Assembly: GCA_020433455.1 (NCBI GenBank)
Contig: JAGRCP010000046.1
Location: 1 to 39,735, forward strand
Source: Caldilineaceae bacterium
GTDB lineage: Bacteria; Chloroflexota; Anaerolineae; Caldilineales; Caldilineaceae
Direction: 5' to 3'
Length of the DNA: 39,735 nucleotides
Program-made: the position numbers and the translations under genes
The notes under the pieces: generated by a model
Told to the model about the DNA's origin: nothing
Database searches by the model: none
The model's input: the letters and a program-made list of their open reading frames with translations, nothing else
Shown: positions 22,033 through 39,027 of the stretch, one piece after another
How positions within the stretch are numbered: position 1 is the first letter of the stretch
How the letters are laid out: each line of letters begins with the position of its first letter

Positions 22033-22070
22033 CCGCGGCCTATCGCATTCCGATACCCTTTTTAACGCAA

Positions 22071-22103: not shown

Positions 22104-22140
22104 TGGCTGTCAGCCCATCCTCGCAATCGGCCGGAAAACG

Positions 22141-24795
22141 CTACTCTGCAAAGTCCGTATAGCGCACCTGGACCCAGCCCGGTATGACCAATGCATCGGC
22201 GGCGACCTGGACCCAGGCCCCGTCTTCGCTGACCTGAAGAACGCTCAGGATGGAGCCGTTGGCCAGATAGGCCAGGGCTTTGGCCTTTGTATCCGGCTCT
22301 TCATGCACGGTGAGGGGCCAGCCGTCCGTCTGTATGGAGGCCAAACCGATGGGTTCGGCCGTTGCTCCGGCGGTGTGGACATCCGTCTCGCCGCCCGCTC
22401 CTTCGCCCATCGACGCGTCTGCCACCGTCAGCATGAATTCACCGGCGCCGACATCGTCCAGGCTGCCCGCTTCCAACACCAGGGTCAGATCGTAGGGGAT
22501 TTCCAGTTCGGTAAAGCCCGCGTCCCGGATATCTTCACCCAGATCATCATTCGCCAAAAGCAGGTTGTCGTCCAAATCATACACGCGCAGAACCGTGTCC
22601 AGATCGTCGTTTGCGGCCGCGACGCGGATATTGATGACGTCTCCCTCCGCCACGTCCAGCGTATAGCGTACGCGCGTGTCCGCCGCAAGTTCGCCGCTTA
22701 CGCTGTCGCCGACCGCAACTGCGCCGCCGTCTGTAATCTCCGCGGTAGTCGCGCTGATCAGATAGTCGATTGCCGCGTCCAGAATGGGATCGCCCTCGCT
22801 GAAGAGGGTCTCCTCAGTCACGGGCACTTGTACGGTGGGCTGCACGCCTACGCCTTCAATGTGGATGTCGCCGTTCATGTCCACGGCGCGTCCCGCGGTG
22901 AAAGTGAAATATTCGCCGCCGGGCATGAGCACCTGATCAATGCTGCCGCCCAGACCGCCGGTAGGATATTGGCCCACAATCGCGGCACGATCGTTGAGGC
23001 TCATGTCGTAGGCGAAGAACTCGCACGCGCTGTTGCAATTGGGCCCCACCAACACGGCCACTTTGCCCCGATAGCGAAGGTCTTCCGCCGGCAGATAGAA
23101 GCGATCCACGGTGCGCTCGTCAAAGAAAAACTCGCCCAGGCTTTTGTCATAACGTCCGTTGTTGCCCAGTTCCAGGGGCTCATCGAAGAAATATGCGGCC
23201 ATCTGATCGGCCAGGAAACCGCTGCCGCCGCCGTTCTGGCGCATGTCGATGATGAGACCGGGCACGCCCGCCTGGTTGAGCGTACGGATCATGCGCTCCC
23301 ACAGCTGAATGCTCAGGAGGTCATTATCCGAGAAGCTGTAGATTTTGGCGTAGCCTAACCCCGCGTTGTCCAGCAGCAAGTATTCCACCGGCTGCTCAAA
23401 ACCGGTGAGACCGCTGTAAAAGGAGGAGAAGCTGAAGCTTTCGGTTTCGGGAACCGCGGCCAGGGTCGCGGTTACGGCGTCGTCCTCTCCCGGATTTTTA
23501 TACGTAATTTCGACTGTTGAATCCAGGGGGAAGCGAATGGCATAGCGAAGCTGCTGCAAGCGGCGCACGTGATCGGTGCTGAAGGGACCGGAATAGGCCA
23601 CGGCCGAGTCCACCGCCTCATCTATGGGCATGCCGTTGATGGCGATAATTTCCGCGCCCAGTTCGATGCCCTGCTCAGCGGCCGGACCATTGGGTAAGAT
23701 GAAGTTGGCAATAACCCGACCGTCATCCACGTCACGGATGGCCAGGCCCAGCCCGGCGGCCGTCGCGGACTGGAAATCTTCCATGATGTTGGGACCGCTC
23801 ACGTGGCCGTCGGGAATGCTCCAGGCGAAGTCGCGCAGCGCGCGGCGATAAGCCGTGAGGTCGTTGTTGGCCTCGGCCTCTTCAAAACGAGGAAGCAACT
23901 CGCTGCGCAAGGCCTCCCAGTCCATGCCCTTGTATTCGGTAAAGGCATATTCGTTGCTCAGCTGGTCAACTAGCGCGTTGAATGCCTCAGCGTAGCCCAG
24001 GTTCGAGTAATCGACCAGGGCGGAACCTTCGGGCTCAATGAGGTTCACCACCGGATTGCGCGAACGATCAAACGTAAAGGGATCGCTGTCCAGATTGACC
24101 AGCGTGTAGCCGGCGGGCACGGTCACGATGGGATCGTCGTCTGTAAAGAGGAGTCCATCCTCGCCAAAGCCGGCAGGAAAGCCCTGCTGATCATCGGGCG
24201 CGTAAATGAGGAACGTCCCGCCTACGATTTCCCGCCGGGTTTCCGCATCTTCGCTTACCCGGGTGGATGCATAGGCCGTGGACCAGCCGCCGCCGTAGAG
24301 GTCCCGCTCTTCCAGAAACGGATCGCCGAAGGTATTGGTCCAGTAGGCGGGCGCAAAGACCATGACGCCCGTCTCGTCCACGCCGTCGTGGTCCACGTCG
24401 CGCAGGCTGCCCTGGGGCTCAATCGGCAGGGCAATGGAATAGGCGAAGGGCGACGTGTAGAAGTCCGAGGTGATCTGCCCCAGGGTTTGGGATTCTACGG
24501 GCATAATGTAGCCTTCGTTGCGGTCTACAAAGCCGGTCTGATCTTCCAGGATGACCATGGGCGCGGCCACGCCCATGGTGAAGAAGGGCGAGGTATAGTT
24601 CACCTCGCCTGTGATGGTCACAGGACCGCCCTCGTCGTTGACGATTTCGGCAGGCGGCGCGTCCTCCTGGGCGTAGGCCGCCGGTGCCAGGAGCAGGCCG
24701 AAGGCCAACAGCAGAATCAACAAGTACGTTAATCGTCGCTCCGTGCTACTGGAATGCAGATACATATTGTTCTCCTTATAGAAAATGAAGATCAA
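22141..24795 (-). CDS. Secreted S41-family (C-terminal processing/tail-specific-like) peptidase with PDZ and C-terminal PPC domain
   Basis: A signal peptide is present. The S41 motifs are LIIDMRQNGGG and GPNCNSACEFFA. The PDZ domain contains GAEIIAINGMPIDEA. The C-terminal pre-peptidase PPC-like beta domain contains DTRVRYTLDVAEGDVINIRV. Confidence 0.7.
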   Translation of the reverse strand: MIFIFYKENNMYLHSSSTERRLTYLLILLLAFGLLLAPAAYAQEDAPPAEIVNDEGGPVTITGEVNYTSPFFTMGVAAPMVILEDQTGFVDRNEGYIMPVESQTLGQITSDFYTSPFAYSIALPIEPQGSLRDVDHDGVDETGVMVFAPAYWTNTFGDPFLEERDLYGGGWSTAYASTRVSEDAETRREIVGGTFLIYAPDDQQGFPAGFGEDGLLFTDDDPIVTVPAGYTLVNLDSDPFTFDRSRNPVVNLIEPEGSALVDYSNLGYAEAFNALVDQLSNEYAFTEYKGMDWEALRSELLPRFEEAEANNDLTAYRRALRDFAWSIPDGHVSGPNIMEDFQSATAAGLGLAIRDVDDGRVIANFILPNGPAAEQGIELGAEIIAINGMPIDEAVDSAVAYSGPFSTDHVRRLQQLRYAIRFPLDSTVEITYKNPGEDDAVTATLAAVPETESFSFSSFYSGLTGFEQPVEYLLLDNAGLGYAKIYSFSDNDLLSIQLWERMIRTLNQAGVPGLIIDMRQNGGGSGFLADQMAAYFFDEPLELGNNGRYDKSLGEFFFDERTVDRFYLPAEDLRYRGKVAVLVGPNCNSACEFFAYDMSLNDRAAIVGQYPTGGLGGSIDQVLMPGGEYFTFTAGRAVDMNGDIHIEGVGVQPTVQVPVTEETLFSEGDPILDAAIDYLISATTAEITDGGAVAVGDSVSGELAADTRVRYTLDVAEGDVINIRVAAANDDLDTVLRVYDLDDNLLLANDDLGEDIRDAGFTELEIPYDLTLVLEAGSLDDVGAGEFMLTVADASMGEGAGGETDVHTAGATAEPIGLASIQTDGWPLTVHEEPDTKAKALAYLANGSILSVLQVSEDGAWVQVAADALVIPGWVQVRYTDFAE

Positions 24796-24818
24796 AGATT
24801 GGGAAGAAGCGTGCAGCT

Positions 24819-27089
24819 TTATTCCTCAATCTTTACTCCTCGACTTACCGCGTGCCACACCTTTTCCGGCGTATAGGGCAGCTGGTCGATCCAAACGCCG
24901 GTCGCGGCATGGATGGCGGCGCCGATGGCCGGCGCAGTAGGAATGAAGGGCATCTCCGCCATGCCCCGTGCGCCCAGCGGCCCCTGGGGATCGGGATGTT
25001 CCAGAATGATGGGGGTGATTTCCTGGGCCACGTCCAGCACGCCGGGGATGAGATAGCCGCTCATGCTGGGGTTGCCGATGCGGCCGTCGCTCTGGACCAG
25101 ATTCTCCAGCAATGTCCAGCCTACGGATTGGGCGACCGCGCCCTCGATCTGCCCTTCCACCTGCTGAGGATTGATGGCCGCGCCTACATCGTTGACGCTG
25201 ATAAGCCGCGTCACCGTGACGCGGCCGGTTTCCATGTCCACCTCTACTTCGGCGGCCTGGGCGCAATAACCGTAGGTGATATTGGGATCGGATTCGCCCG
25301 TCTCGGCATCGTACATGGTGGTCGGCCGGGGGCGATAAACGAAGTCGGCCCGGGCGGGGCGCTCTTCGTTCCGCCACGCCCTGAGGGCCTCTTCGGTCGC
25401 GCCCAGAATGGCATTGCCCGCCATGAAGCTCATGCGGCTGGCCGATGTGCTGCCGGTGGAGCCGCCGTCATCCGTATCTTCCGCACGCAACGTCACTTGA
25501 TTGGGCTCAATGCCCAGCGCCTGGGCGGCAATTTGGCAGAACAGGGTGTGCGCGCCCTGGCCCACATCCGCGCCCACGCAACTCACGACAGCCCGCTCAA
25601 TCTCCGATTCGCCATGCAGCTCCACCGCAGCAGCGCACTGTTCGGGCGCGCCCAGGCTGAAGCCCACATTTTTCAGACACATGGCCATCCCCACGCCCCG
25701 CGCGGTTGCGCCTTGGGTCGCGTCCAGGGAGAGGCGCAGCGCGGACCGCGGTTGCGTCCGGCGCGTTGCCCGCCTCATTGCCAATTGACCCTCGTTTGTC
25801 GTCAACTCTTCGTCGACGCGCTCCAGCACTGCGGACGCGGAACAGCCCGGCGGCACGGGGCTGCGGGTCGCCAGCAGATCGCCGTCATGCAGGACGTTGC
25901 GTCGCCGTATTTCCACCGGATCCAGGCCCAGTGCAGCCGCCAGCTTGTTGACCTGCATTTCCGCGGCAAAATGGGCCTGGGGGCCGCCAAAGCCCCGAAA
26001 CGCGCCATTGGGGCAGTTGCTGGTGTAGACCGCCCTGGCCTCCACCGCAACATTCGGGATGGCGTAGGGCCCCAGACAGGCCAACACCGCGTTGCCCAAT
26101 ACCTTGGTGCTGGTCGAGGCGTAGGCTCCGGCATCGGCGATTACCTCGTTCTGCGCCGCGGTGATGCGCCCCTCTGCATCGGCCGCCCACTTGGCGCGAA
26201 TAATGTAGGGATGGCGCTTGTGGTGCCCGCGGATGCTCTCCTCACGGCTCCAAACGGTCTTGACCGGACGTCCTGTCTTTTGTGCGGCCAGCGCCAGCGC
26301 GATCTGGAGCGAGATGTCCTCCCGCCCGCCGAACGCGCCGCCGATGGCCGGATAGCGCACGACGATTTGCTCATCGGGCAGGCCCAGCGCGTGGGCGATC
26401 TGCTCTCGCTCCTCATGCATCCACTGGCCGCCGCAGATGACCTCAATGCGGCCGTCAGGCAGCGTGTGGGCCAGCCCCGCTTCAGGCTGAAGGTAGAGAT
26501 GCTCCTGAGCGTGGGTTCGGTACTCCGCCTCAATAACGACTTCGGCATCGGCAAAAGCCGCCTCCACATCGCCGTGATGGATGCGGAACGAATGGAGCAC
26601 GTTAGAGGCCAGATTTCGTTCGCCGTACATGAACTCAAAAAAATTGGGGTGGAAGATGTGGGCGTCGGGCTGCATGGCCGCCAGGGGATCGGTGATGATG
26701 GGCAGCTCTGTGTAATCCAATTCGATCAGCTCGGCCGCGGCCGCGGCCTGCCCGGGCGTTTCGGCTATGACCAGCGCAATGCGATCCGCTTCCCACCGCA
26801 CCACCGCGGCCTGTTCATTGCTGCCCGGCCCGCAGATCACGGGCTGGTCGGGCATGATAAGCCCGAATTCGTTGACGGGAACGTCCGCCGCAGTCAATAC
26901 GGCAATGACGCCCGGTGCGGCCGCGGCCCGGCTGACATCCACGGCGTGAATGCGGGCATGGGGAATGCCCGCAAAGACCGTTTTCATGTACGCCTGGCCC
27001 GGCAGATCGATATCACCGGGATAGAGGGCTGCGCCCGTGGTCTTGTCCGCCCCGTCGATTCGGGGTAAACTGCTGCCGACAGCTCGCAT
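24819..27089 (-). CDS. Molybdopterin-binding large subunit of the xanthine dehydrogenase/aldehyde oxidase/CoxL family
   Basis: The N-terminal a/b-hammerhead is [18 protein letters not shown]...[10 protein letters not shown]...[13 protein letters not shown], and the 756-aa MoCo-binding body follows. No adjacent 2Fe-2S or FAD subunit genes are present. Confidence 0.85.
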
Positions 27090-27156
27090 GACAATCTCCC
27101 TATCGTTTAATTTTTTTGTCGGTTCTCTGAATCAATTCGGCTACTCTTTGGGACCG

Positions 27157-27513
27157 TTAATCCCGCCGGACCAGCATGGGGCCGAGCCGACGCCCGCCCA
27201 ACAGGTGCATGTGCAGGTGATACACTTCCTGGCCGCCGTCCCGATTACAGTTCACGATCAAGCGGTAGCCGTTCTCGTCAATGCCCTCGTCGGCGGCCAG
27301 CTTGGCCGCGACCGTGAAGAGGCGGCCCAATGCCGGCTCATCCTCTTCCGTCACGTCGTTGACGGTGGGAATGATCCGGTTGGGAATGATGAGGATATGG
27401 GTAGGCGCCTGGGGATTGACGTCCCGGAAAGCAGTAACCAAATCGTCCTGATAAAGAATATCGGCCGGAATTTCCCGGCGGATAATTTTGCTGAAAATGG
27501 TCTCCTGGGCCAT
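27157..27513 (-). CDS. HIT-family (histidine triad) nucleotide hydrolase
   Basis: The motif HLHMHLLGG is HxHxHxx, and the protein is 118 aa from [11 protein letters not shown]. The listed longer ORF has an implausible N-terminal extension. Confidence 0.85.
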
Positions 27514-27806
27514 GAACGCCTCCTGAGTCGGGTGGGGGGGAAAAGTCGTCCTGCGGTAAGCTGACGGAATTATAGCGCAGTTCGCACACGCTGTCAGGCA
27601 AGCGCTGCGCTGTGGGCGCAATTCACTTTGCGAGCAGATCGTCATGCCTGACCAGGCTTGCCGTAAGCTCATACAATCCGCCGTCTGTCTTTGCCCCGCG
27701 TGCGTCAGGCGAATGTCATTGCCCTGTCGCAGGCTAGTCAAGTACAATACGTCGTAAATGCTTAGACTGACAATATCGTTCCGGTCTCTTATGCAGGAGA
27801 ACGTCT

Positions 27807-28568
27807 ATGCTGCGCATGACCCGCACCCGCATCACCTTCTTCAGCGTCGTCGGTCTGATGGTGATTATCCTTATGATCTCCCTGGCGACCCAATCCATTG
27901 CCGTACAGGCGTTGAGCCAGCTCTTCATTGCTGCAACCATTTTCAGCGTTGCGGTGGTGACCATCGACATGCTGGGCCTGCTGGGCGGCGAGAGCGGCGA
28001 CGGCGCGCACGGCGGCGACAGCGGTGATTTTGATGCAGGCGATGTTGACGCGGGCGATTTTGACGCAGGGGATGCGGCGATCGACCACGCGGGTGACGGC
28101 GAGATTGCGGTAACGGGCGGCGAGGATATCGGTCCGGGCGACACCCATACCGGATATCTGGGCGATCAGGGCAATCCGGTGCTCTCGGCCCTGACCTACC
28201 TGCGCATGTTCGTCTATTTCTGCCTCGGCTTTGGGCCCGTGGGTTGGTTTGCGCTGAACGGCGGTTGGAATCCGGCCATGGCCCTGCTGTTGGCCGCGGG
28301 CGTGGGCGTGATTGCGGTCTTTATCGCCCAGGCGTTTTTCCGCTTCCAGCGCAGCGATACCGACTCCAGCATCCGCAACAGCGAACTGCTGCAGCGTCCT
28401 GCCACCGTCCTCATCGGCCTAAGCGACACGAGTTTGGGGCGGGTGCGGGTTCAGATCGGCATGAGCGTGCTGGAGCCCCACGCGCTGGCTGCTCGTCCCG
28501 GACGTTTTGTCAAAGGCGACGCCGTGCGCATCGTCCGCGTCGAGGATGATTGCGTTTATGTGGAATAG
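27807..28568 (+). CDS. NfeD-like membrane protein (OB-fold C-terminus) with Asp/Gly-rich acidic insert
   Basis: It has TM helices and the C-terminal NfeD beta-barrel (ATVLIGLSDTSLGRVRVQIGMSVLEP...GDAVRIVRVEDDCVYVE). It lies immediately upstream of the flotillin gene. Confidence 0.7.
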   Translation: MLRMTRTRITFFSVVGLMVIILMISLATQSIAVQALSQLFIAATIFSVAVVTIDMLGLLGGESGDGAHGGDSGDFDAGDVDAGDFDAGDAAIDHAGDGEIAVTGGEDIGPGDTHTGYLGDQGNPVLSALTYLRMFVYFCLGFGPVGWFALNGGWNPAMALLLAAGVGVIAVFIAQAFFRFQRSDTDSSIRNSELLQRPATVLIGLSDTSLGRVRVQIGMSVLEPHALAARPGRFVKGDAVRIVRVEDDCVYVE

Positions 28569-28625
28569 CAGGCGTAACGCGCCTGCATTACTTCTGACAT
28601 CTGACTGTTGAAAGGAGCGTTATCC

Positions 28626-30011
28626 ATGGGAATTATCGGTGGCGTTGTAGCGGTTGTTCTTTTCTTTCTGGTAATCGGCCTGCTGCGGTCCATTATTCAC
28701 GTCTGTCCGTCGAACCAAATTCTGGTGATTACCGGCGGCACGGAGACCGAAGTGGACGGACGCAAATATGGCTTCCGCCTGCAGAAGGGCGGCTGGACGG
28801 CCATCGTGCCTTTCCTGCAGAACGCACGCTCCATTGACCTGACGATTACGCCCATCAACGTGCGCATTGACGGCGTCAACTCGGCCAACGGCATCAACGT
28901 GGGCGCGGATGCCACGGCCTGCGTCTGTATCGATGATGAGAATGAGACGCTGCTCTACAGCGCGGTCCAGCAGCTCCTGGGCAAATCGCGGGATCAGATT
29001 CAGGATCAGATTCAGCAGACCATGATTGGTAACTTCCGGGCCGCGCTCAACAAGACGACGCCCCTTCAGGCCATCGGTATGGTGGAGAGTGCAGAGGATG
29101 TGGATGATGTGGAATTGGCCGCCCTGGCGGGCAAAACCATCGGCACGACGCCCATGGATGCCTCCAACAGCAGCGCAGAACTGGTCGAGAAGATTAATGA
29201 TGCCGAAGGCGAGCGCGCAATCTTCCGCAGCGTACTGCTGGAAGATTGCCAGGAAGATTTGAGCAGCTTCGGCATTGACGTTGTTTCGGTCTCCCTCCAA
29301 CGGATTTGGGATACGTCCAACTATATCGCCAACCTGGCCAATAAGACCCTTTCACGCAAGCGCCAGGATGTGGAAGTCGAGGAGGCCCGCCTCCACGCCC
29401 GGGCCGACCGGGCCGAATCCGATGCCCAGCGCCGGATGCAGGTGGCCGAGAGTCAGGCCAACGAACGCATTGTGGCCGCACGTCAGGATGTGGAACTCTT
29501 CCGACGCCAGGCTGAGGCTGACATCAACCGGGCACGGCTGGAGGCGGACAGCGCCATTGCCGAGGCGGAAAGCCAGGGCCAGCGCAAGGTGGAGGAGTTG
29601 AAGGTGGAGTTGCAGCGGCTGCGCAACCAGTCGGAAGTGACGCTGGATGCCTCGGCCCGGCGCCGGGCCGCGGAAACCACGGCCGAGGGCGAAGGCGACG
29701 CCGTGGAGATCGTCCAGGCTGCCCACAACGATTTGCTCCAGCGCAGGGCCGAGCTGCTGCGGGAGAACGGCGATTTGGCGCGGCTGGTGCTCATCTACAA
29801 CAAGCTGCCCGAACTGTTTGCTGCCTATCAGCAGCACGCCCAATCCCAAAAGGTGGGGCAGCTGCTGGTGCTCAACGAAGAAGACGGTTTCAATCAGGCC
29901 GTCAACCGGGGCCCGGCCGCCATGGTCAGCTTCCTGCAGCAACTGGATGCGGGTTTCGGCGTCAACCTGCGCGATCTCCTGCGCAGCGATCAGCCGGCCC
30001 AGCAAGCGTAG
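28626..30011 (+). CDS. SPFH/Band-7 flotillin-like protein (FloT/YuaG-like)
   Basis: There is an N-terminal TM segment, an SPFH domain, and a C-terminal Ala/Glu/Arg/Gln-rich coiled coil. An AAAGGAG RBS precedes the ATG at 28626, and the TTG at 28608 is an alternative start. Confidence 0.8.
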   Translation: MGIIGGVVAVVLFFLVIGLLRSIIHVCPSNQILVITGGTETEVDGRKYGFRLQKGGWTAIVPFLQNARSIDLTITPINVRIDGVNSANGINVGADATACVCIDDENETLLYSAVQQLLGKSRDQIQDQIQQTMIGNFRAALNKTTPLQAIGMVESAEDVDDVELAALAGKTIGTTPMDASNSSAELVEKINDAEGERAIFRSVLLEDCQEDLSSFGIDVVSVSLQRIWDTSNYIANLANKTLSRKRQDVEVEEARLHARADRAESDAQRRMQVAESQANERIVAARQDVELFRRQAEADINRARLEADSAIAEAESQGQRKVEELKVELQRLRNQSEVTLDASARRRAAETTAEGEGDAVEIVQAAHNDLLQRRAELLRENGDLARLVLIYNKLPELFAAYQQHAQSQKVGQLLVLNEEDGFNQAVNRGPAAMVSFLQQLDAGFGVNLRDLLRSDQPAQQA

Positions 30012-30134
30012 GGCAAATGAAAGTCAATCAATATCGTCTGCGGCGATATCGTCTTGGGGCCGGTTTGCGTGCAAGATATCGCTTGAACTTACGACAATAT
30101 TGGTATCAATAACCATACGCATACGGTTCGTATC

Positions 30135-30434
30135 CTACTGACCTGAAGCGCTGCGTGCATCATCAACCAGATTCTCGATCAGCCCTGTAAGGGTGTCTTC
30201 AGCGACATCCAACTGCGCCAGAGGAGAGGTCGCTGACTGCGCGTAGATCTGCCCGAGAACGGCCGTGCGCTGTTCTCGTTGCTGTTCCAGTTCTTCAAGT
30301 CGTTCAATCGGAATCAGGGCGATTGCCGGTTTTCCGGAACGTGAGACAATGTAGGTATCCTTGCCGTACATCACTTCGTTCATCACCTGTGCGAAGTTAA
30401 TGCGCACGTCTGTGGCGGAAATAGTTTTGTTCAT
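30135..30434 (-). CDS. Phd/YefM-family type II antitoxin (no adjacent toxin)
   Basis: The sequence MNKTISATDVRINFAQVMNEVMYGKDTYIVSRSGKPAIALIPIERLEELE is the Phd/YefM fold. The protein is 99 aa. Confidence 0.75.
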   Translation of the reverse strand: MNKTISATDVRINFAQVMNEVMYGKDTYIVSRSGKPAIALIPIERLEELEQQREQRTAVLGQIYAQSATSPLAQLDVAEDTLTGLIENLVDDARSASGQ

Positions 30435-30560
30435 AAATGGCGCCTTTTTGTAAATCAGGATACGCTGTCTACCAGTACATAAAATGTACATTTTGTATAA
30501 GTGTCCTACGTTAAAATTGTTGCGTAGTCAAGGGCGCGTCTGCCGCGGATCTAATTCAAT

Positions 30561-30776
30561 TTTGGGGCAGGATTCAGAATCGGTGGGTAGATTCTTCGCT
30601 GGAGGTTAGGGACGCCTGAACATTTTGGGTTAACCCGCTCAGAATGACAGCGCGTCTTGTTTTGTCATTCTGAGCGGATCGCCACAGCCGCGTCATGACA
30701 GCAGAAGGTCAGCGAAGAATCTTGCCTGGGATAGTCAGGGGGGTATTTCACGCTGGGGGCAGGATCCAGAATTCGA
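30561..30776. repeat. Nested inverted-repeat element flanked by about 20-bp direct repeats (MITE-like / structured ncRNA candidate)
   Basis: The inner 15-bp perfect stem pairs 30636-30650 with 30665-30678 (CCGCTCAGAATGACA / TGTCATTCTGAGCGG). The outer 13-bp perfect stem pairs 30590-30602 with 30711-30723 (AGATTCTTCGCTG / CAGCGAAGAATCT). The element is flanked by direct repeats GGGGCAGGAT(T/C)CAGAAT(C/T)(G/C)G at 30566-30585 and 30757-30776, the first copy preceded by TTTT. Confidence 0.5.
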
Positions 30777-30945
30777 GCCGCAAAGGGTTAATATCAGCCG
30801 AAATACCGTCCAATCCGGCCCAAATTTTGCCTGAATTACGATCGCTCCCCCAAATTGAAATGCACTTGTCTGCCGGACGACCGCAAGGGTCGCACTCTAC
30901 CCCAGCATTATTTTCTGTAGTGGCGTAGGCGCGTATGGGCATATA

Positions 30946-30989
30946 AAAAGCGGCCGTCATCTTGCTGATGAGACGACGGCCGCTTTTTG
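30946..30989. terminator. Bidirectional rho-independent terminator (AAAAAGCGGCCGTC...GACGGCCGCTTTTT)
   Basis: A GC-rich 9-12 bp stem is flanked by an A5 run on one side and a T5 run on the other. It lies immediately 3' of bcp on the minus strand. Confidence 0.8.
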
Positions 30990-31025
30990 AGTAGGGTTTT
31001 CGATGAGCGTTCTTGCTATGGGCGC

Positions 31026-31487
31026 TTATCCCAGCGCTTTGAGCGCGGCGGGCGCACTCTTTTTGGGACTGATCTTGTACTGTACATCGACCAGCTTCCC
31101 GGCTTCATCAATGACAAACTGGCTGCGGATAATGCCCATATATTTGCGGCCATACATGGATTTCTCGCCCCACACGCCATAGGCATCGGCGATGCTGTGA
31201 TCCTCATCCACCAGGAGGGTGAAGGGCAGATCGTACTTGCTGCGAAACTTTTCGTGGGAGGCCACGCCGTCGGGGCTGACGCCCAACACCACGGCGTTCT
31301 TCTCTTCAATTTCAGGATAGACATCGCGCAGGCCGCACGCCTGGGTGGTGCAACCGCTGGTATCATCTTTGGGATAGAAGTAAAGCACCACGCGTTTCCC
31401 CGCATAGTCGCTCAGGCGGACGGTATCGCCGCTGTCGGTGAGTGCGCTAAAGACCGGGGCCGATTGGCCGACTTCCAGGTTGGTCAT
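31026..31487 (-). CDS. bcp: Thiol peroxidase Bcp / peroxiredoxin Q
   Basis: The motif FYPKDDTSGCTTQAC carries the peroxidatic and resolving Cys, and the fold is thioredoxin-like. The protein is 153 aa from MTNLEVGQSAP. Confidence 0.85.
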   Translation of the reverse strand: MTNLEVGQSAPVFSALTDSGDTVRLSDYAGKRVVLYFYPKDDTSGCTTQACGLRDVYPEIEEKNAVVLGVSPDGVASHEKFRSKYDLPFTLLVDEDHSIADAYGVWGEKSMYGRKYMGIIRSQFVIDEAGKLVDVQYKISPKKSAPAALKALG

Positions 31488-31563
31488 GGATGAAGTTCCT
31501 TGCTGGTAGAGAATACAAATTGTCGACAAGCCATCAAATTCTACCTGGAAGTATACCAAACCT

Positions 31564-32370
31564 TTATGTAGGGCGGGAGACGGAACCGGCGGCCGCGCGC
31601 GGGGCGGTGCGCGCCTTGCTCCCTTTCGGCTTGGCTGAAAAAATGCGGTAATAGGTAGCAAAGAGTACGCTGGCGCCCGTGAACAAATATACGGCGTGCA
31701 TGGCAAAATGCCCGCTATCGCTGCCCTCCATGAGACCGTGGATCAGGGCCAGCACAAAGGCGACATAGGCCAGATAGTGAAAGGCGCGCCACGCCCGCCG
31801 TCCGATCCGCTTGCGCACGTAAAAGCTTGCAATCAGGGCCGTCGAGAGATAGAAGGAAACCGTCCCCAATCCAGTCCACACCGGCTTGTAGGATGCCGTA
31901 AACGGCAACAACAAATCGCGTAGCTGGAAGTGAATGTACTGGTCGCCCAGCAGGACCAGCGCATGCACCGCAGCGAAAATGACGGCCAGAAAGGGAAAGA
32001 ATTCATGCAGACCGAAGAGCAGCGCAGGCTTGAGGGCCCCTTTGGTCAGCTTGCCGCTCATGGCCACGCCCCAGAAGGTTGCAAACCAGAGCAGGAGATA
32101 AGCGACGATGCCGCCGGCACGGGCCATATACCAATAGGCGGGCGTGTCTTCCGTCAGGGGCAAAGCCATGATCGTTGCCTCTTGGCGCAACGTGTCTGTG
32201 ACCGCGGAACCGGCCGCAGTAAGAGCCGCGGGTTCGCGGAGCGCCATGGTCGGGAGCAGTGTTGCTGCGGTCAGTACGGCAATCGCGCCGATAAGACTGC
32301 CGACCAGCATAATCAGGATGTCGGGGCTGCGTGTGGAATGGGTTTGGGTAGTCATGAGCTGTTTCCTCAA
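31564..32370 (-). CDS. Ferric-reductase-like / MsrQ-like di-haem transmembrane protein
   Basis: It has six predicted TM helices. There are two His pairs at H-x13-H spacing (LHEFFPFLAVIFAAVHAL and FHYLAYVAFVLALIHGL), which is typical of bis-haem b ferric-reductase domains. Confidence 0.6.
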   Translation of the reverse strand: MRKQLMTTQTHSTRSPDILIMLVGSLIGAIAVLTAATLLPTMALREPAALTAAGSAVTDTLRQEATIMALPLTEDTPAYWYMARAGGIVAYLLLWFATFWGVAMSGKLTKGALKPALLFGLHEFFPFLAVIFAAVHALVLLGDQYIHFQLRDLLLPFTASYKPVWTGLGTVSFYLSTALIASFYVRKRIGRRAWRAFHYLAYVAFVLALIHGLMEGSDSGHFAMHAVYLFTGASVLFATYYRIFSAKPKGSKARTAPRAAAGSVSRPT

Positions 32371-32417
32371 TTGAATGTTATTCGATAAGCGTCGGGTTAA
32401 ATGTGCAGCCGTCGCCC

Positions 32418-32888
32418 TTATGAGCTGCCGCTCTTGGACGAGCCGCCGCTACTATTGCTGCCGCCGTTGTTATTGTTGCTGCTGCGGCTGGGCGGTGGCG
32501 GGACCGGCTTCTGGGGCAGAGCAGGAAGGGGCTCCAGCGTAGGCAGCGGCGCCAGGGCGGACATGCCGGGTAAGGCAAGGTCTACAGGAGCGGCCGCCTC
32601 CGCCTCGTCGAGTTGGTGCGTGATAAAGTCGGCCGTGTTTACGCGCAGGGTGGGGATGGACGCCGGCGTGGGCAGGGCGGCAATGTCCGGCAGCCCAGGC
32701 GTGACGGTCACTGCCTGCACCGGCTGCTCCGGGAGCGCCTCGGACTGGGCTCTGGCCGCCTCCAGGTGGCCGATCGCGCCCCAAACCCCGATCATCGACG
32801 TAATCGCCAGGGCGGTGGCCGTGGTTTTGGCCGGCAGAGAAAATTTACTGGGTCCTACAGGTTGTGGTTTCATATCAATCATCCTCAT
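32418..32888 (-). CDS. Membrane-anchored Pro/Ala-rich hypothetical protein with Asn/Gly/Ser-rich C-terminal tail
   Basis: It has a single N-terminal TM segment (ALAITSMIGVWGAIG), then a Pro-rich extracytoplasmic region and an NNNNGGSNSSGGSSKSGSS tail. It lies between the ApbE and MsrQ-like genes. Confidence 0.4.
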   Translation of the reverse strand: MRMIDMKPQPVGPSKFSLPAKTTATALAITSMIGVWGAIGHLEAARAQSEALPEQPVQAVTVTPGLPDIAALPTPASIPTLRVNTADFITHQLDEAEAAAPVDLALPGMSALAPLPTLEPLPALPQKPVPPPPSRSSNNNNGGSNSSGGSSKSGSS

Positions 32889-32960
32889 AATTTTCGGGCA
32901 AATTTTTGTGCAGCAGAATTAACCGTACGACGGAAACATGGCTTTCGTCGGGTTTCCGGT

Positions 32961-33903
32961 TTAGCACGACTGTACTGGGTGTAAATGACGTTCAGGCGGA
33001 GAGACGGTGAGCCGGGAAGCCAGCCCATCAGTAGCATAGAGCCTTCCGTCCTGAGCCTGAAGTAGAGCATCCACGCCCCGTTGCGTCAGGAAAGTCAGTC
33101 CGGCGCGGCTGCCCAGAATCAGTGCGCTCTTGGCATAGATCTCAGCGATGGTCGCCCGGGGCGCCAGAACAGTAACGGCGAGCAAGTCGGTATCCGCGGG
33201 TTGACCCGTGCGCGGGTCGATAATATGGTGGCGCATCCGCCCATCCCGCTGCCAGCGACGCTTGATCACCGTTGACGTGGCGACCGCACTGTGGCTGACC
33301 GTCACTGTGGCCACGCCGGCATCCGGATTCAATGCGTCTTCTATCTCGATCCGCCAGCCGTCCGTTGTCCCCGGCGTACCATAGGCATAGATATCCCCGC
33401 CGGCATTGAGCAGAAACGGCCCTTCCTTGTAGAGCAAATCGGCGCAGCGATCCACCGTCCACCCTTTCCCGATTCCGCCCAGATCCAGGCGGAGCTCGCA
33501 GGGGCGGCGCACCCGACAACCGTTGCGATCAAGCACCACATCCTTCATGGTAAAGTGACTGTGCGATGAGCCGTCCGCGCGCCAGCCTGCTACGGTTGGC
33601 GTCGTCTGGTCGGCGGCTATCTCTTCAAAGCTACGGTCGTAGCCCGCCCTTTCCAGACTCGGCAGGATGGTCGGATCAAAGAGACCTTGCGTACTGGAAG
33701 CCGCCCACTGCGCGGCTTCCAGTACGGCGAACAACTCGTGGCTCACGTGTTGTTCAGGCCGTTCGCTGCGGTTGAGCAGACTTAACTCGCTGTCCGCACG
33801 GAACCGGGAAAGGCGTTGCTCGCTGCGGGCGAAGGTCGTCTCCACATACCGGGCCAGGCTGGGGCGGGTTGAATACAGCAGGACGGAGACGTTGGTGTTC
33901 ATG
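32961..33903 (-). CDS. apbE: FAD:protein FMN transferase ApbE
   Basis: The motifs RFRADSELSLLN, LGGIGKGWTVD, NAGGDIYAYG and HHIIDPRTGQP are ApbE signatures. The likely start is MNTNVSV at 33903. The Met/Thr-rich N-terminal extension of the listed ORF is an out-of-frame read of the upstream gene's repeat. Confidence 0.85.
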
Positions 33904-33987
33904 GCTCGAAATTGGCGTTCCGTCCAGGCTGCTCCGCCGGCGGGGCTTACAGCCGCAAATCCCGCAGCGGTTGGTGCGCCCGGCATG

Positions 33988-34674
33988 TTAGTCGTCATCG
34001 TGGTCGCCGCCGTGGTCGTCATCATGATCGCCGCCGTGATCATCTCCATGATCATCTCCATGATCATCACCGTGTTCGTCATCGTGTTCGCCTGACTCAT
34101 GCTCTTCATGGTCGTCATCATCGTCTTGGTGGGCGCTGTTGTTATTATTGTCGCTGCCGCCCCCGTTGCCGCCGGGACGAGCTGCTTGGGCAGCCTGTTG
34201 TGCCGCCAGATCGTTGTAGGCCGTCTGAAGTGAAGCCAGGGTCGTTTCCAACTGCCGGCGCAGTTGCGTTTCGTTGCCTTGAAGCGCCGTTACTTGCTGG
34301 GTGTAGGCCTGGGCGTCCTGCTCCAACGCAGCCTGGGCGGTTTGGAGTTGGGCCTGCAGATTGGCGACGGCGCTCTCCCGGGCGGTGATTGCCGCCTGAT
34401 CGGCCTCTACGGCAGACTGGGCCGCTTCTATCTTTGCGCTATACTCAGCGTCCATATTCGCCAGTACTTGCTGCAACTCTGCAACGTTGGCCTGGAGCGC
34501 CTTTTCCTGCGCAAGCTGGGGCGCTTCAGCCTCGGTAGACGTGACAACCGCAACATCTGTTGTCTCCGGCTGGGCCGCGCTGCGGGCACGGGCCTGACCG
34601 GTCAGCACAACAAGCGGGCCGGCGATTAAAATAGTCAGTAAAGCGGATAGTAAAAAGGCGTGTGAGCGCTGCAT
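33988..34674 (-). CDS. Signal-anchored coiled-coil protein with Gly/Asn linker and His/Asp-rich C-terminal tail (putative periplasmic metal-binding, Spy/CpxP/ZraP-like)
   Basis: An N-terminal TM/signal segment is followed by about 150 aa of Gln/Ala/Leu-rich heptad helix carrying a VTALQ LTxxQ-like motif. The C-terminus is HQDDDDDHEEHESGEHDDEHGDDHGDDHGDDHGGDHDDDHGGDHDDD. An AAAGGAGA RBS precedes the ATG. Confidence 0.55.
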   Translation of the reverse strand: MQRSHAFLLSALLTILIAGPLVVLTGQARARSAAQPETTDVAVVTSTEAEAPQLAQEKALQANVAELQQVLANMDAEYSAKIEAAQSAVEADQAAITARESAVANLQAQLQTAQAALEQDAQAYTQQVTALQGNETQLRRQLETTLASLQTAYNDLAAQQAAQAARPGGNGGGSDNNNNSAHQDDDDDHEEHESGEHDDEHGDDHGDDHGDDHGGDHDDDHGGDHDDD

Positions 34675-34764
34675 GTCATTCTCCTTTATCTCTCGCCCGT
34701 CACGGGCGTTATGTTGGCGATGTCTCATCTCTTGCGGATTGATTTCCGGCCTGCGCCGAGTTTC

Positions 34765-35271
34765 TTACCGTCCCAGCACCTGGTTGACTTCATCCAGCCG
34801 GGCCTGCGCTTCATTGATCTGGGCTGTAATCATCTGGGCGCGGGCCGCGTACTCGGATTGGGCGCCTTGCAGCTGCTGTGCGTATTGGGCGCTGCGCCCG
34901 GCGCGTGCAGCCGTGAATTTTTCCAGCTGTGCGCTCAGCGCTTCCTCCTGCTGAATCAGGGCCGTCAGCTTTTCATCTGCTGCGTTCTGGGCATTGGTCA
35001 AGGCGGTCAATTGGTCGGCAAAGATTGCCTGACGTTCGTCAATGGTGCGCTGAAGTTCACCCGCCTGCTTTTGCAGAGTGAGCGCACGATCTACGTAAAA
35101 TGCCGTATCCGCTTCAGTGCTTGCTTCTGTATTCATTTCTGTACTTGCGTCCGTTGATGCTGATGCCGCTTCGGCCGTCAGGCCCATTGCGGGCGCGAAG
35201 CTAAAGAAAAGCACGGTTGCGGCCAGTGCGACCGTCATGGTGACAACGAAAATGACAACTGTACTCCGCAT
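34765..35271 (-). CDS. Signal-anchored coiled-coil protein, paralog of the downstream gene (Spy/CpxP-like size, 168 aa)
   Basis: An N-terminal hydrophobic segment and an acidic ASTDASTEMNTEASTEAD stretch are followed by a Gln/Ala/Leu-rich helix that contains LTNAQ (LTxxQ). Confidence 0.5.
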   Translation of the reverse strand: MRSTVVIFVVTMTVALAATVLFFSFAPAMGLTAEAASASTDASTEMNTEASTEADTAFYVDRALTLQKQAGELQRTIDERQAIFADQLTALTNAQNAADEKLTALIQQEEALSAQLEKFTAARAGRSAQYAQQLQGAQSEYAARAQMITAQINEAQARLDEVNQVLGR

Positions 35272-35536
35272 GGTTCAAGCCTCCTGTTTCACTGGGATCC
35301 GCTTGTTCTCCGGGCCACCTATATGGCCGGGGGCAGGAGCGGATGCTGGTCGAATCTTCCCGGCGAGCATTGCGCCCGCCGGCCCAGTGTAACAAAAATT
35401 GACCGGGCGGTGGTTAGGTCTGAATTATGCGTATGTTAAGCGTTTCTTTAATCCTGACAGGATTCTTGAGAGGGGTATCGAGCGGATCGTTGATGGGGAT
35501 AATTGCCGGGGAGCGTGCAGGGGGAAGCGCTGGAGG

Positions 35537-37135
35537 TTACCGGCTGGGGATAGGGAACGCTATGGTAAAGGCTGTGCCCTGCTTTTCGGTGCTGGAGACG
35601 CTGATACGGCCGCCGTTTTGCTCTACCAATGTTTTGACAATGGCGAGTCCGAGACCGGCCCCCGTACCCTCGCCCCTCTGCAGGCGGCTACGCGCCGGGT
35701 CAACGCGGTAGAAGTATTCGAAGATATGCGCCAAATCCTCGGGCGGAATTCCCGGGCCCGAGTCGCTGACGACAATTTTCGCAACGCCGGTCCGGCCCGC
35801 CGTCTGTTCGGTCTCGACGCGCAGGGTGACGCTCCCCCCGGGCGGGGTGTACTTGACCGCGTTATCCAGCAAATTGAGCACGACGGTTTCGACTTCATTG
35901 GCGCGTACGCTGAGCGGGGGCAGCAGTTCTTCAACGCTCACGGCAAAGGTGAGGCCGGCGTCCTTCATGCGCATGCGCATGGCGCGCGCCACGTCGAGAA
36001 GCATGGGGCGTATATCTGTCGGCGCTTCCGGCGGCGGCGGTTCGCGATTCTCGATCTTGCTCAGATCCAATAGGGTAGCAGCCAGCCGGCCCAGGCGATC
36101 CGCTTCGCTGTCAATCTCATGCAGATAGCGCTTGCTTAGCGCCGGGTCCTCGCCGTCCAGCGTCAGGAGGGCTTCACTGCGCAGCTTGATATTGGTCAGC
36201 GGCGTGCGCAGCTCATGGCTGGCATTGGCGATGAAGAGTCGTTGGCGGCGGATCATCTCCTGCAGCTCGCTCACCATGTAGTCGAAGGTCCGCGCCAGCG
36301 AGCCAATCTCATCGATTGAGTCAATATCTGCGCTCTGGGACAGATCGCCGGAAGCCACAGCCAATGCGGTTTCCTGCAGGCGTTGGATGGGGCGCACCAA
36401 ACGGCGCGCCAGGAAGATGCCCAGCACCGTGGCCAGGGCCAGCGCCGCCGCGCCGGCCAGTAAGAGGGTCAGCGCGAGCCCCCGAATGGGGGCAAGTACG
36501 TCGGACATGGGTTGAGCCATGCGCACAACGCCGAGCAGATTGTCGCCGATTTGCACCGGTGCAGCAGCAAACATATAGCGCACATCGCCCGCGGGATCGG
36601 TTCGAATATCGTGCTGTTCGACAAGCTGGGTTGCGGCCTGAAATTCGGGCGTGAGCAGTTGGTTGCCGATGGCCGCGGCCGAACCGCGGCTGTCTACGAT
36701 TGCATCGCCGCGCACGTCGAGGATTGTGACCCAGAGGCCGTCCTGTTGAGCGTAGCGGTTGGCCAAATGTTGCAGGCCATTTGTGCCCGGCGCGTTCGCC
36801 GTAAGGCCCTGGTCGCCCGCGTCGTCTTCTTCTCCGGCCGAATCTTCCCCGTCGTCGCTCTCTTTTCCGTCATGACTTTCTCGCCGCTCGTATTCTTCCA
36901 GCTCGCTGGAATATCCGCTGAGCGGATCTTCCAGGGCGTTCGCGGCCAACAAGGCTTTTACCTCCAGATCGTGTTCGGCCTGGTCGATCTGGACGCTGTA
37001 GACAGCGTTAATCACCAGCGCCATGAGCAGGCTCAGCACAATTAGAACGAGCAGGCCATAGCTGGCGATCAACCGAAACTGGAGACGCTGACGCCAGGGG
37101 ATGCGGGATGGGACGGGCAGAGCCTGTTTATTCAT
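35537..37135 (-). CDS. Sensor histidine kinase (two TM, acidic periplasmic sensor, HAMP, HisKA, HATPase_c)
   Basis: The H-box is HELRTPLTNI, the N-box is LLDNAVKYT, and the G-box is GTGAGLGLAIVKTLVEQNGG. The periplasmic loop contains ESHDGKESDDGEDSAGEEDDAGD. Confidence 0.88.
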   Translation of the reverse strand: MNKQALPVPSRIPWRQRLQFRLIASYGLLVLIVLSLLMALVINAVYSVQIDQAEHDLEVKALLAANALEDPLSGYSSELEEYERRESHDGKESDDGEDSAGEEDDAGDQGLTANAPGTNGLQHLANRYAQQDGLWVTILDVRGDAIVDSRGSAAAIGNQLLTPEFQAATQLVEQHDIRTDPAGDVRYMFAAAPVQIGDNLLGVVRMAQPMSDVLAPIRGLALTLLLAGAAALALATVLGIFLARRLVRPIQRLQETALAVASGDLSQSADIDSIDEIGSLARTFDYMVSELQEMIRRQRLFIANASHELRTPLTNIKLRSEALLTLDGEDPALSKRYLHEIDSEADRLGRLAATLLDLSKIENREPPPPEAPTDIRPMLLDVARAMRMRMKDAGLTFAVSVEELLPPLSVRANEVETVVLNLLDNAVKYTPPGGSVTLRVETEQTAGRTGVAKIVVSDSGPGIPPEDLAHIFEYFYRVDPARSRLQRGEGTGAGLGLAIVKTLVEQNGGRISVSSTEKQGTAFTIAFPIPSR

Positions 37136-37150
37136 GATGTCGTCTATTTG

Positions 37151-37894
37151 TTATTTGTGATCGGCGATCTCATCCGGGGCGACGAGACGATATCCCACGC
37201 CCCGGATCGTGAGCAGCAATTCCGGCTTGCTCGGATCCCGCTCCAGCTTTGCGCGCAGCCAGCGCATGTGTACATCCAGCGTACGCGGATCGCCGATCCA
37301 CTCCGCGCCCCACACCTGATCCACCAAATCGCCCCGCTTCACCGCGGCGCCCTGCGCATCGAGCAGCGCTATCAACAAGCTGTATTCCCGCTGCGAAAGA
37401 TGCACCGGTTCATCATCCACCGCCACCTGGTAGCGCGCCCGATTGACGCTTACGTGGCTCAACTGCACGACGGCGGATTCCTCCGGGGGGGCAGTCTCGG
37501 CCGGGGGCGTTTGCTGCGCGCTGTCCATGGCCACCCGCCGCAATACGGCGCGAATGCGGGCGATGAGTTCCCGTGCGCTGAAGGGCTTGGTGAGATAATC
37601 ATCCGCACCCAACTCCAGGCCCAGAATGCGGTCCATTTCTTCTCCCCGGGCAGTCAGCATGATGATGGGAACGCCACTCTCGGCGCGCAACTCGCGGCAG
37701 ACTTCCCAGCCCTGCTTTTTGGGCATCATGATATCCAGCAGGACAACGTCCGGGTCTATCGCCCGCGCCTGGGCCAGCGCATCTTCGCCGTCGACTGCGA
37801 CGTGTACGACAAAGCCTTCGCGGCGCAGTTGCAATGCCAGGGGATCGATGATCATCGGATCGTCATCCGCCAGCAAGATAGTCTCATCGGCCAT
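37151..37894 (-). CDS. OmpR/PhoB-family response regulator
   Basis: The receiver domain has ILLADDDP and the phospho-accepting Asp in VVLLDIMMPK. The C-terminal winged helix ends in GVGYRL. Confidence 0.9.
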   Translation of the reverse strand: MADETILLADDDPMIIDPLALQLRREGFVVHVAVDGEDALAQARAIDPDVVLLDIMMPKKQGWEVCRELRAESGVPIIMLTARGEEMDRILGLELGADDYLTKPFSARELIARIRAVLRRVAMDSAQQTPPAETAPPEESAVVQLSHVSVNRARYQVAVDDEPVHLSQREYSLLIALLDAQGAAVKRGDLVDQVWGAEWIGDPRTLDVHMRWLRAKLERDPSKPELLLTIRGVGYRLVAPDEIADHK

Positions 37895-38058
37895 ATATCA
37901 TCCGTTTCACTTCATTTCGTTGAACGTATCGGGCTCTTTTTGACCACGTCCATTCATTTGCGTCATGCCTGACGGGGATTGTTCCTGTCGCCCCAAGCTG
38001 CCCCGTATAGCATGCCCGAATCCTTTCGTCCTGTGGTCAAGTCCAGGCTAGGAGTCGG

Positions 38059-38108
38059 TTAAGCCTATGTTAAGAACGCTGGATCCAGCGTTCTTAACAT
38101 AGGCTTAA
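38059..38108. repeat. 50-bp perfect palindrome (25-bp arms, no spacer, centred on GGATCC)
   Basis: TTAAGCCTATGTTAAGAACGCTGGA|TCCAGCGTTCTTAACATAGGCTTAA was checked base by base. It lies in the divergent intergenic region between the response-regulator start and the downstream membrane-protein gene. Confidence 0.9.
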
Positions 38109-38351
38109 TGCCTTAATGAGCAATGTTTAACCACGCTCGTCACAAATGGGCGTATACTATCAACCATGCACGGCTTTCATCGGCTTTGGGATGTGCTGTG
38201 TGCAATGCTGTGTACGGCGCTGTGCAGGGATGACATCGTACAACTACCGGCATCTCTGCACAAGCCGCTTAAACTATACGCAGGCAGGCGTTTCCTGCAC
38301 CAAATTCCGGACAACCATGGGTTGTCAAGCTTTAGTTGGAGGATTGTTGAC

Positions 38352-38864: not shown

Positions 38865-39027
38865 AGCCGCCCTTTTTCCAAGCAGCAAAATCAGCACGCC
38901 GGAATGAATCCGTTCCCGGCGTGCCGATTCATTTTTTAGATTGAACGAAACCCGATAATCGGCTACAATTTGCCCTGTTCGCTTTCTGTGCGATCCATCT
39001 TATCCGGCCCAAAGGAGACCCCCGACC

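Follow-up and report, generated by a model that had tools for sequence, protein, structure and literature searches.

What is the nested palindrome that lies at positions 30561–30776 of contig JAGRCP010000046.1 (assembly GCA_020433455.1), from a member of the Caldilineaceae? The stretch of DNA analysed herein is 39,735 nt in length and is referred to as the window; at this position, between the genes for a peroxiredoxin (bcp) and a Phd/YefM antitoxin (phd), it carries two concentric inverted repeats bracketed by a direct repeat. A sequence-only reading of the locus had proposed either a non-autonomous transposable element, with terminal inverted repeats and a duplicated target, or a highly structured small RNA (sRNA) or riboregulator. 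The answer reached here is a different one, and is given a probability of approximately 0.72: the element is a head-to-head pair, made up of two inverted copies of a single hairpin repeat of some 26 nt, each in a long-loop form. With this, the structure is explained as a pair of interspersed hairpin repeats, and has been dropped from the candidate new RNAs and transposons of the window. As a feature of the window the element is ordinary; the class of unit from which it is built appears to be undescribed in its present form.

Structure of the element

The first of the two repeat units (unit 1) occupies positions 30588–30649 on the minus strand, and was delimited using a regular expression with a check of stem complementarity, a repeat finder and folding. 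Read along that strand, it comprises a TGTC head, ATTCT, GAGCG, a loop insert of 35 nt (GGTTAACCCAAAATGTTCAGGCGTCCCTAACCTCC), AGCGA, AGAAT and the tail CTA; on the plus strand the same unit corresponds to the left outer arm (30589–30601) together with the left inner arm (30635–30649). Unit 2, at 30663–30723 on the plus strand, was recovered by the same regular expression and by the repeat finder. It displays the identical order of parts, with a loop insert of 34 nt (GATCGCCACAGCCGCGTCATGACAGCAGAAGGTC) and the tail CTT, and unites the right inner arm (30663–30677) with the right outer arm (30710–30722). Between the two TGTC heads lies a spacer of 13 nt (GCGCGTCTTGTTT, 30650–30662), to which no strand is assigned. 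Both TGTCATTCTGAGCG and AGCGAAGAATC are present exactly in each of the two units, with every conserved position intact. The single free loop base (N) of the repeat is replaced by 35 nt in unit 1 and by 34 nt in unit 2, and these inserts bear no relation to each other.

The two perfect stems originally reported for this locus are indeed present. The inner inverted repeat (30635–30649 with 30663–30677) is 15 nt long with a spacer of 13 nt, the outer (30589–30601 with 30710–30722) is 13 nt long, and both are 100 % complementary. They are, nevertheless, not a purpose-built two-stem structure: where a split unit is present twice in opposite orientation, its halves necessarily pair as two perfect inverted repeats, one within the other, with an interior that is not complementary. 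Likewise, the CAGAAT core, rightly said to recur in every arm, does so because the repeat has ATTCT/AGAAT as its basal stem. A single short sequence that is often translated into spurious open reading frames (ORFs) appeared to be split between the outer (AGATTCTTCGCTG) and inner (CGCTCAGAATGACA) arms, a lead that was then tested. With regard to coding potential, the statement that no ORF covers the element holds for real genes; four ORFs of 40–77 aa do overlap it, and the two largest of these (77 and 70 aa) have no Pfam match.

Structural predictions demonstrate that a core of 142 nt folds far better than shuffled sequences on both strands, as RNA (z = −5.2 and −6.3) and also as DNA (z = −4.9 and −4.6). 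Chance is no explanation for the inverted and direct repeats of the element. For unit 1, taken with its exact boundaries, the minimum-energy fold consists of the canonical basal stem with an extended apical stem. In unit 2, the canonical closure has a predicted energy of −10.8 kcal/mol against a minimum of −12.9 kcal/mol with RNA parameters, and of −5.6 against −7.4 with DNA parameters.

A widely distributed hairpin repeat

Written on its purine-rich strand, the unit has the consensus 5′-TGTC-ATTCT-GA-GCGNAGC-GA-AGAAT-C(T/C)N, and is approximately 25–26 nt in length. It consists of an unpaired 5′ head (TGTC), a 5 bp stem (ATTCT/AGAAT), a tandem G.A/A.G step, a GCGNAGC mini-hairpin and a C-rich tail. 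Whatever the identity of N, mini-hairpins of the type d(GCGNAGC) have a very high stability, which is greater in DNA than in RNA (PMC13037366). A search of viral contigs with the pattern GATTCTTCGCT-N(1-31)-CGCTCAGAATGAC returned 132 matches in 110 stretches, compared with an estimated expectation of approximately 0.01; the gap was a single nucleotide, of any base, in 112 of the 132. Cellular genomes, represented by one genome per species, were scanned with the head-to-head pattern CGCTCAGAATGACA-N(3-33)-TGTCATTCTGAGCG, which occurs in at least 110 stretches from at least eight phyla. Hosts of such pairs include the Chloroflexota (Ktedonobacteraceae, Chloroflexia and Anaerolineae), Verrucomicrobiota, Acidobacteriota, Binataceae, Clostridiales and Bacteroidales, as well as Nitrospinota, Omnitrophota, Planctomycetota, Cyanobacteria and Gemmatimonas. 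In 112 head-to-head pairs of other genomes the spacer between the heads measures 8–33 nt, with a mode of 11. Some metagenome-assembled genomes (MAGs) hold many copies of the unit, and amongst plasmids only five, all cyanobacterial, match the canonical pair. A fortuitous palindrome, the fallback of the sequence-only reading, is ruled out by the membership of the element in this interspersed family.

The same unit of 25–26 nt is accordingly found in Clostridiales, Bacteroidales, Chloroflexota, Acidobacteriota, Verrucomicrobiota, Cyanobacteria and phages, which makes it one of the most broadly shared short non-coding sequences met in the analysis; it is absent from Rfam. Scans of the window and of 12 unit-rich loci at gathering thresholds gave no match, and neither did the element at permissive thresholds; permissive scans of the intergenic spacer and of two further loci (L147 and L119) returned only chance matches, either to generic long hairpins (microRNA precursors) or to terminator-like models. 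Literature searches using sequence or peptide strings retrieved chance primer matches only. The unit also gives rise to many spurious short ORFs, with peptides such as RFFASLRMT and HSERSEES, which matters for annotation. The element as a whole is a different case: searches for additional copies of the 216 bp in the window, 357 loci, plasmids and phages found it solely in identical contigs of the same strain.

Conservation of the unit extends to its pairing. Of sites with the core GA-GCGNAGC-GA, 310 of 387 have a perfect 5 bp stem, and the head at these 310 is TGTC in 294 cases and CGTC in nine. Of the units that the search patterns left unconstrained, 80 have a perfect stem, in at least nine compensated types (including ATCCT/AGGAT, ACCCT/AGGGT and ATGCT/AGCAT), compared with about 25 expected when partners are shuffled. 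This excess of compensated variants indicates that the hairpin of the unit is maintained. Imperfect stems were too few for a comparison of G.T with A.C mismatches, by which RNA might be told from DNA. The loop ranges from 3 to 39 nt among sampled loci, with longer inserts forming small stem–loops.

Units occur singly, in tail-to-tail, head-to-head and head-to-tail pairs, and in tandem arrays; viral loci that were chosen by single units yielded 37 tail-to-tail, 13 head-to-tail and six head-to-head arrangements. One locus (L055, 9390–9774) harbours head-to-tail tandem arrays with periods of 30 and 33 nt, in three and four copies, evidence that the unit is able to grow into satellites as well. 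A further setting is provided by 25 related phage contigs of one lineage, which possess an SPP1-like portal and an HK97-like capsid (L005, L008, L014, L016, L023, L040, L044 and L102 are included therein); they carry many units in their intergenic spaces, and the unpaired ones are often located 20–50 nt ahead of the next start codon.

Association with GIY-YIG nucleases

A precedent for hairpin repeats of this kind comes from Neisseria, where the Neisseria Transformation Sequence (NTS; CGTCATTCCCGCGMAVGCGGGAATCYRG), an extended dRS3 unit, is bound as a single-stranded DNA hairpin by SsnA (Chenal et al. 2025; PMC11893778). SsnA is a single-domain GIY-YIG nuclease of 94 aa that cuts a few nucleotides 5′ of the head, and that still cleaves when the loop of the NTS is deleted or lengthened; across phyla, ssn genes are flanked by repeats of their own (PMC11893778). 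In the present data, seven of 221 motif-selected loci (L099, L123, L129, L159, L171, L179 and L201) contain a single-domain GIY-YIG ORF of 95–114 aa (PF01541) beside or between units, and none was found in 120 control loci. The reverse test gave a corresponding result, with 13–14 of 16 viral loci that contain GIY-YIG homologues carrying (T/C)GTCAT-headed hairpins within 400 nt. One of these loci (L363) bears an exact unit (TGTCATTCTGAGCGAAGCGAAGAATCTC), and several possess NTS/dRS3-type units (TGTCATTCCCGCGAAGGCGGGAATCCA).

A relative of the window organism is also informative in this respect. A protein of 95 aa from a Caldilineales MAG (P0316, the locus of which was fetched via the protein) has Y17 and E64 at the catalytic positions reported for SsnA. 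On one side its gene is adjoined by a canonical unit with the stem ATGCT/AGCAT, and on the other by long-loop units with loops of 34 and 69 nt, whose half-sites, GAGCGG...CAGCGAAG, are also those of the window units. In addition, the loop start GGTTAAC is common to unit 1 of the window and to long-loop units of an Anaerolineae MAG. Taken together, the shared loop start and the units beside P0316 mark the long-loop form as a recurring Chloroflexota subtype and no accident of this locus. When two samples of this Caldilineales locus are compared (L381, 2790–3530, and L380, 2790–3040), one contains approximately 495 bp more of unit array, a surplus that includes a duplicate of the unit with the 69 nt loop and three additional units with loops of 34 nt; the GIY-YIG protein is identical in both.

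Other neighbours of the unit are diverse. Eighteen ORFs are flanked by units, and the ten that were scanned include eight unrelated housekeeping or phage genes and two with no Pfam match; none of the ten is a Y1 transposase (RAYT). All-against-all clustering of neighbouring proteins recovered a phage structural module, common families and a small GIY-YIG cluster, and there is no transposase among the top protein families of the window. Should the association with GIY-YIG genes hold genome-wide, the range of Ssn/hairpin systems would be wider than described; if true, it would also offer new specificities for the cutting of single-stranded DNA, together with natural loop-extended substrates.

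Relationship to known repeat systems

The unit resembles the Ssn-related motifs (SRMs), to which the NTS belongs (SRM/NTS type), in several ways. Behind an unpaired (C/T)GTC head come AT, a hairpin and an ...AATC(Y) tail, in an ATTC.../...GAAT-C frame; copies are scattered between genes, often as inverted pairs or clusters; the loop is variable; and genes for single-domain GIY-YIG proteins of approximately 95 aa are flanked by units on one or both sides. Furthermore, homologues of the unit-adjoining GIY-YIG proteins are elsewhere flanked by true NTS-type units. The conserved unpaired 5′ head described for SRMs, HGTC followed by W-Y, by which the repeat acquires an orientation, is seen in both window units, which start TGTCAT, and so is a hairpin closed by an R-N-C-Y tail (ATTCT/AGAAT, then C-T). 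Flanking of a GIY-YIG gene by repeats was observed at the seven loci, at L363 and in the Caldilineales MAG, and not in the window. The unit differs from the SRM/NTS type in stem and loop: the unit has five Watson–Crick pairs, the G.A/A.G step and GCGNAGC, whereas the NTS has eight G+C-rich pairs and a loop of 4 nt, and loops of the unit reach 34–69 nt in Chloroflexota. The window also lacks an ssn-like gene.

Di Nocera et al. (2013; PMC3733652) distinguished two superfamilies of repetitive extragenic palindromic sequences (REPs), one tagged GTAG and the other CGTC. In the CGTC-tagged superfamily the tag is often TGTC and may be CCTC, stems start with A-T, T-A, tails are short, dimers are formed and no transposase is associated; Neisseria dRS3 and Rickettsia RPE-4 and RPE-6 are among its members (PMC3733652). 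The unit shares with these elements the TGTC head, the A-T/T-A start of the stem, a short unpaired tail, the lack of a transposase, the existence of similar units across phyla and dimers that fold either separately or as one long hairpin. It differs from them in stem and loop, which in CGTC-tagged REPs comprise 8–9 fully paired bp and 4–5 nt, respectively, and in its tail, C(T/C)N as opposed to CCA. Head-to-head dimers predominate in that superfamily and tail-to-tail ones are rare, whereas tail-to-tail pairs outnumber head-to-head pairs by 37 to 6 in our unbiased viral sample (the window pair itself is head-to-head), and Chloroflexota are not among the hosts of CGTC repeats named in PMC3733652.

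Likeness to GTAG-tagged REPs and REPINs extends to short headed palindromes and to inverted doublets that form long hairpins, and some enterobacterial REPs carry an apical GCGNAGC (PMC2817692). The unit is set apart from this group by its TGTC head and by the absence of a Y1 transposase from the unit-flanked genes scanned, the indicated partner being of the GIY-YIG type. Miniature inverted-repeat transposable elements (MITEs) such as Correia, ERIC and Nezha are similarly small, non-coding, palindromic and multi-copy. The element, in contrast, has no terminal inverted repeats at its boundary and no abutting target duplication; only the approximately 26 nt of the unit are conserved, and no parent insertion sequence is known. 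A reading as an integron attC site was rejected as well, as by inspection GGGTTAACCC gives no R″/R′ cores.

Proposed mode of action and points against it

By analogy with the NTS and SsnA of Neisseria, the unit would act when DNA is single-stranded, be it incoming, replicating or phage DNA. In this state it would fold, and a cognate Ssn-type nuclease would bind it via the head and basal stem, with cleavage a short way (a few nucleotides) 5′ of the head. On the same analogy, the head–head spacer at 30650–30662 is the predicted cut zone for both window units. Since the loop is dispensable and extendable for SsnA, long-loop copies could still be recognised. The unit is probably read by Ssn-type GIY-YIG nucleases of single-stranded DNA, as the Neisseria precedent suggests, and the window pair is most likely a passive copy in a rearranged spacer. 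A bolder proposal, which must be regarded as speculative and rather improbable, is that the unit represents an unrecognised and very large branch of the Ssn/hairpin repeats, that loop cargo of tens of nucleotides propagates with the unit, and that the small GIY-YIG nuclease is the long-sought agent by which CGTC-tagged REPs spread, its activity not being limited to a restriction-like attack on incoming single-stranded DNA.

A number of observations weigh against the head-to-head pair of nuclease-read units, or against parts of it. The published SRM pattern, HGTCWYN(0-2)YYVSBRHN(0-5)WNVSBRGN(0-2)RNCYNB, matches neither the canonical unit nor either strand of the window, a failure caused by the G.A/A.G positions of the unit; the same regular expression does match the NTS example and an NTS-type flank from L365. 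With respect to CGTC-tagged REPs, the stem of the unit has nine positions of which 6–7 are G.A/A.G, and its loop is 3 nt (34–35 nt in the window). Because of this failure and of the departure from CGTC stem and loop sizes, the unit is classed as a variant of these systems and not as a member. When single-stranded, the pair has a composite hairpin at −33 kcal/mol, compared with −4 to −7 kcal/mol for the two unit hairpins, and this composite structure could mask the very fold that the nuclease is expected to read. The 39.7 kb window holds one site (two units) only, with no further copy of any arm, and contains no GIY-YIG gene. As for the nuclease link, the excess is modest on counts alone (five against none in controls by the same regular expression); the GIY-YIG proteins were assigned through Pfam PF01541 only, and their putative place in the Ssn clade (cd10448) is judged from protein size and domain content, together with the positions of key residues and the surrounding repeats. 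Finally, the phage lineage of 25 contigs has a strong strand bias, with 36 unpaired units on the sense strand against 7, which would also fit a role at the RNA level.

The flanking direct repeats

The element is bracketed by a direct repeat, GGGGCAGGAT(T/C)CAGAAT, which had been described as 20 bp in length with copies about 190 bp apart. The distance (192 nt) is confirmed, whilst the length is 17 nt, with one mismatch. Copy 1 (30564–30580, plus strand; GGGGCAGGATTCAGAAT) lies 8 nt to the left of unit 1 and contains the palindrome GATTCAGAATC; copy 2 (30756–30772, plus strand; GGGGCAGGATCCAGAAT) lies 33 nt to the right of unit 2. Stretched to 29 nt, the repeat retains 79 % identity. With up to three mismatches, the 17-mer has three matches in the whole window (two of them exact) against 0.30 expected, and local alignment of the two contexts beat 300 of 300 shuffles. 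A count of repeats of 17 nt with at most one mismatch, within 400 nt of each other, gave two in the window section 20001–39735; we take both to be offsets of this same direct repeat. At least 120 matches to the 17 nt were found in metagenomes, all with unrelated flanks, which points to chance and to no repeat family. The direct repeat is statistically real and is not a target-site duplication. A decayed tandem duplication of 192 bp was considered as its source and rejected, being only weakly above shuffles (8/300).

Alternative explanations

It is possible, albeit distinctly less probable than the reading as a pair of recognisable units, that the element is an inactive relic, i.e. a family member rendered non-functional by its loop insertions and by the hairpin between the units, and now junk DNA. 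The far greater stability of the composite hairpin over the unit folds would fit, as would the broken synteny with relatives, the lack of a nuclease gene nearby and the company of a degenerate GTAG-type hairpin and a truncated toxin gene within the same spacer. Published SsnA, however, tolerates loop extension (PMC11893778), and the conserved positions are intact in both units whilst their loops differ completely. Long-loop units with conserved loop ends also exist in two other Chloroflexota genomes, beside a GIY-YIG gene and in tandem, a recurrence which suggests that long-loop forms propagate. A role at the RNA level is more doubtful still. Many REPs have been proposed to hold up 3′ exonucleases or to block read-through, and the element, which lies between two co-directional genes and has a very stable RNA fold on both strands, could do likewise between bcp and phd. 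The sense bias of the phage lineage would agree with this, and 10 of 29 units there sit 4–12 nt after a stop codon; in that lineage an RNA-level role is conceivable. Overall, though, orientation relative to genes (from crude gene calls) shows no bias, with single units dividing 37 to 31 in viral and 12 to 17 in genomic loci. At the locus itself, the element comes only after the terminator-like hairpin of bcp, no promoter-like site was found in the spacer, and the greater stability of the GCGNAGC core as DNA and the proximity of units to genes of the single-stranded DNA nuclease type also speak against such a role.

The two explanations put forward in the sequence-only reading fare worse. That of a non-autonomous repeated element survives in part, in that the units are short, non-coding, interspersed palindromic repeats; its specific form, a classical MITE mobilised by a transposase, with terminal inverted repeats and with the 17 nt direct repeats as target-site duplication, is very improbable. 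The palindromic and non-coding nature of the element, the recurrence of its arms in many genomes and the statistically unusual bracketing repeat speak in its favour, and contigs of three assemblies stop inside the element, as happens at repeats. Yet the direct repeats stand 8 and 33 nt off the arms, are too long for a typical duplication and have no conserved flanks elsewhere, and the segment that they bound lacks terminal inverted repeats. Nor was a second copy of the whole element found in the window, the 357 loci or the plasmid and phage collections, or a transposase among the unit-flanked genes scanned or the top families of the window. Related phage contigs differ in their copy number of units, and setting filled sites against empty ones in these contigs disclosed no clean insertion boundary and no duplication. 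Scarcely credible, finally, is a dedicated structured sRNA, riboregulator or control site of phd. A strong predicted structure upstream of phd invites this suggestion, but no Rfam model matches, the fold is equal on the two strands, the spacer is devoid of promoter-like sites, and it is the arms and not the interior that are conserved. Moreover, across many phyla these arms have unrelated genes as neighbours, and for phd a separate palindrome at 30476–30499 is the likelier operator.

Local setting

The element is situated between bcp (31487–31026, minus strand) and phd (30434–30135, minus strand). The intergenic gap had been put at about 540 bp, a figure that fits a longer ORF of 118 aa; from the called start of phd at 30434 to the stop of bcp at 31026 it amounts to 591 nt. 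Close to bcp, a hairpin with arms of 18 nt (30945–30988, 94 % complementary) is flanked by A5 and T5 and looks like a bidirectional intrinsic terminator for this gene. A consensus terminator scan made no call at 30945–30988, and the sole Rfam echo there (E = 0.008) came from an unrelated sRNA model, in its terminator portion. At the other end of the spacer, directly upstream of phd, the palindrome TACATAAAATGT/ACATTTTGTATA at 30476–30499 has GTACA cores and resembles operators of the YefM type; it is separate from the element, and likelier to be the control site of phd. An ORF of 32 aa (30024–30122, minus strand), 12 nt downstream of phd, starts MRMVIDTNIVV and is too short for a Pfam match. 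By appearance it is the N-terminal part of a PIN/VapC toxin, cut off at the end of the Band_7 gene, which would leave a decayed toxin–antitoxin module.

The spacer contains one further palindrome, a representative of another widespread kind of hairpin repeat, at about 30876–30900 on the minus strand, which is degenerate and GTAG-headed, with the stem CGACC/GGTCG and the loop CTTGC; its plus strand reads GGACGACCGCAAGGGTCGCACTCTAC. Exact matches of 16–19 nt to this sequence occur at L189 (as four tandem copies), L032, L221 and L143, and in phage loci GTAG hairpins adjoin TGTC units.

Comparison of the orthologous region in relatives, suggested at the outset as a test for presence or absence of the element, revealed different gene orders or non-homologous spacers and no empty site. 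In the closest relatives (L223, L224 and L226, with a Band_7 protein 74–87 % identical) a second Band_7 paralogue follows, whereas in the window the Band_7 gene (28608–30011) is succeeded by the toxin remnant, phd, the repeats and bcp, thus placing the element at a synteny breakpoint. Relatives with a Bcp that is 86–88 % identical have non-homologous spacers, one of which carries degenerate units. Other samples yielded same-strain contigs with 100 % identity across the element, three of which read through it. Three further same-strain contigs (L230, L232 and L358), from other samples and assemblers, stop inside the element when approached from the bcp side, at 30610, 30610 and 30587; these breaks could reflect a structural variant, graph branching induced by repeats or a drop in coverage at the hairpin. 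At the far end of the window, which starts at a contig end, positions 1–1500 include a fragment containing HTH_23/HTH_29 (a transposase-like helix-turn-helix) and a HAD-hydrolase gene that is seemingly broken into short ORFs; the genes of L360 in this part of the window lie at 1–180, 454–747, 966–1154 and 1239–1487.

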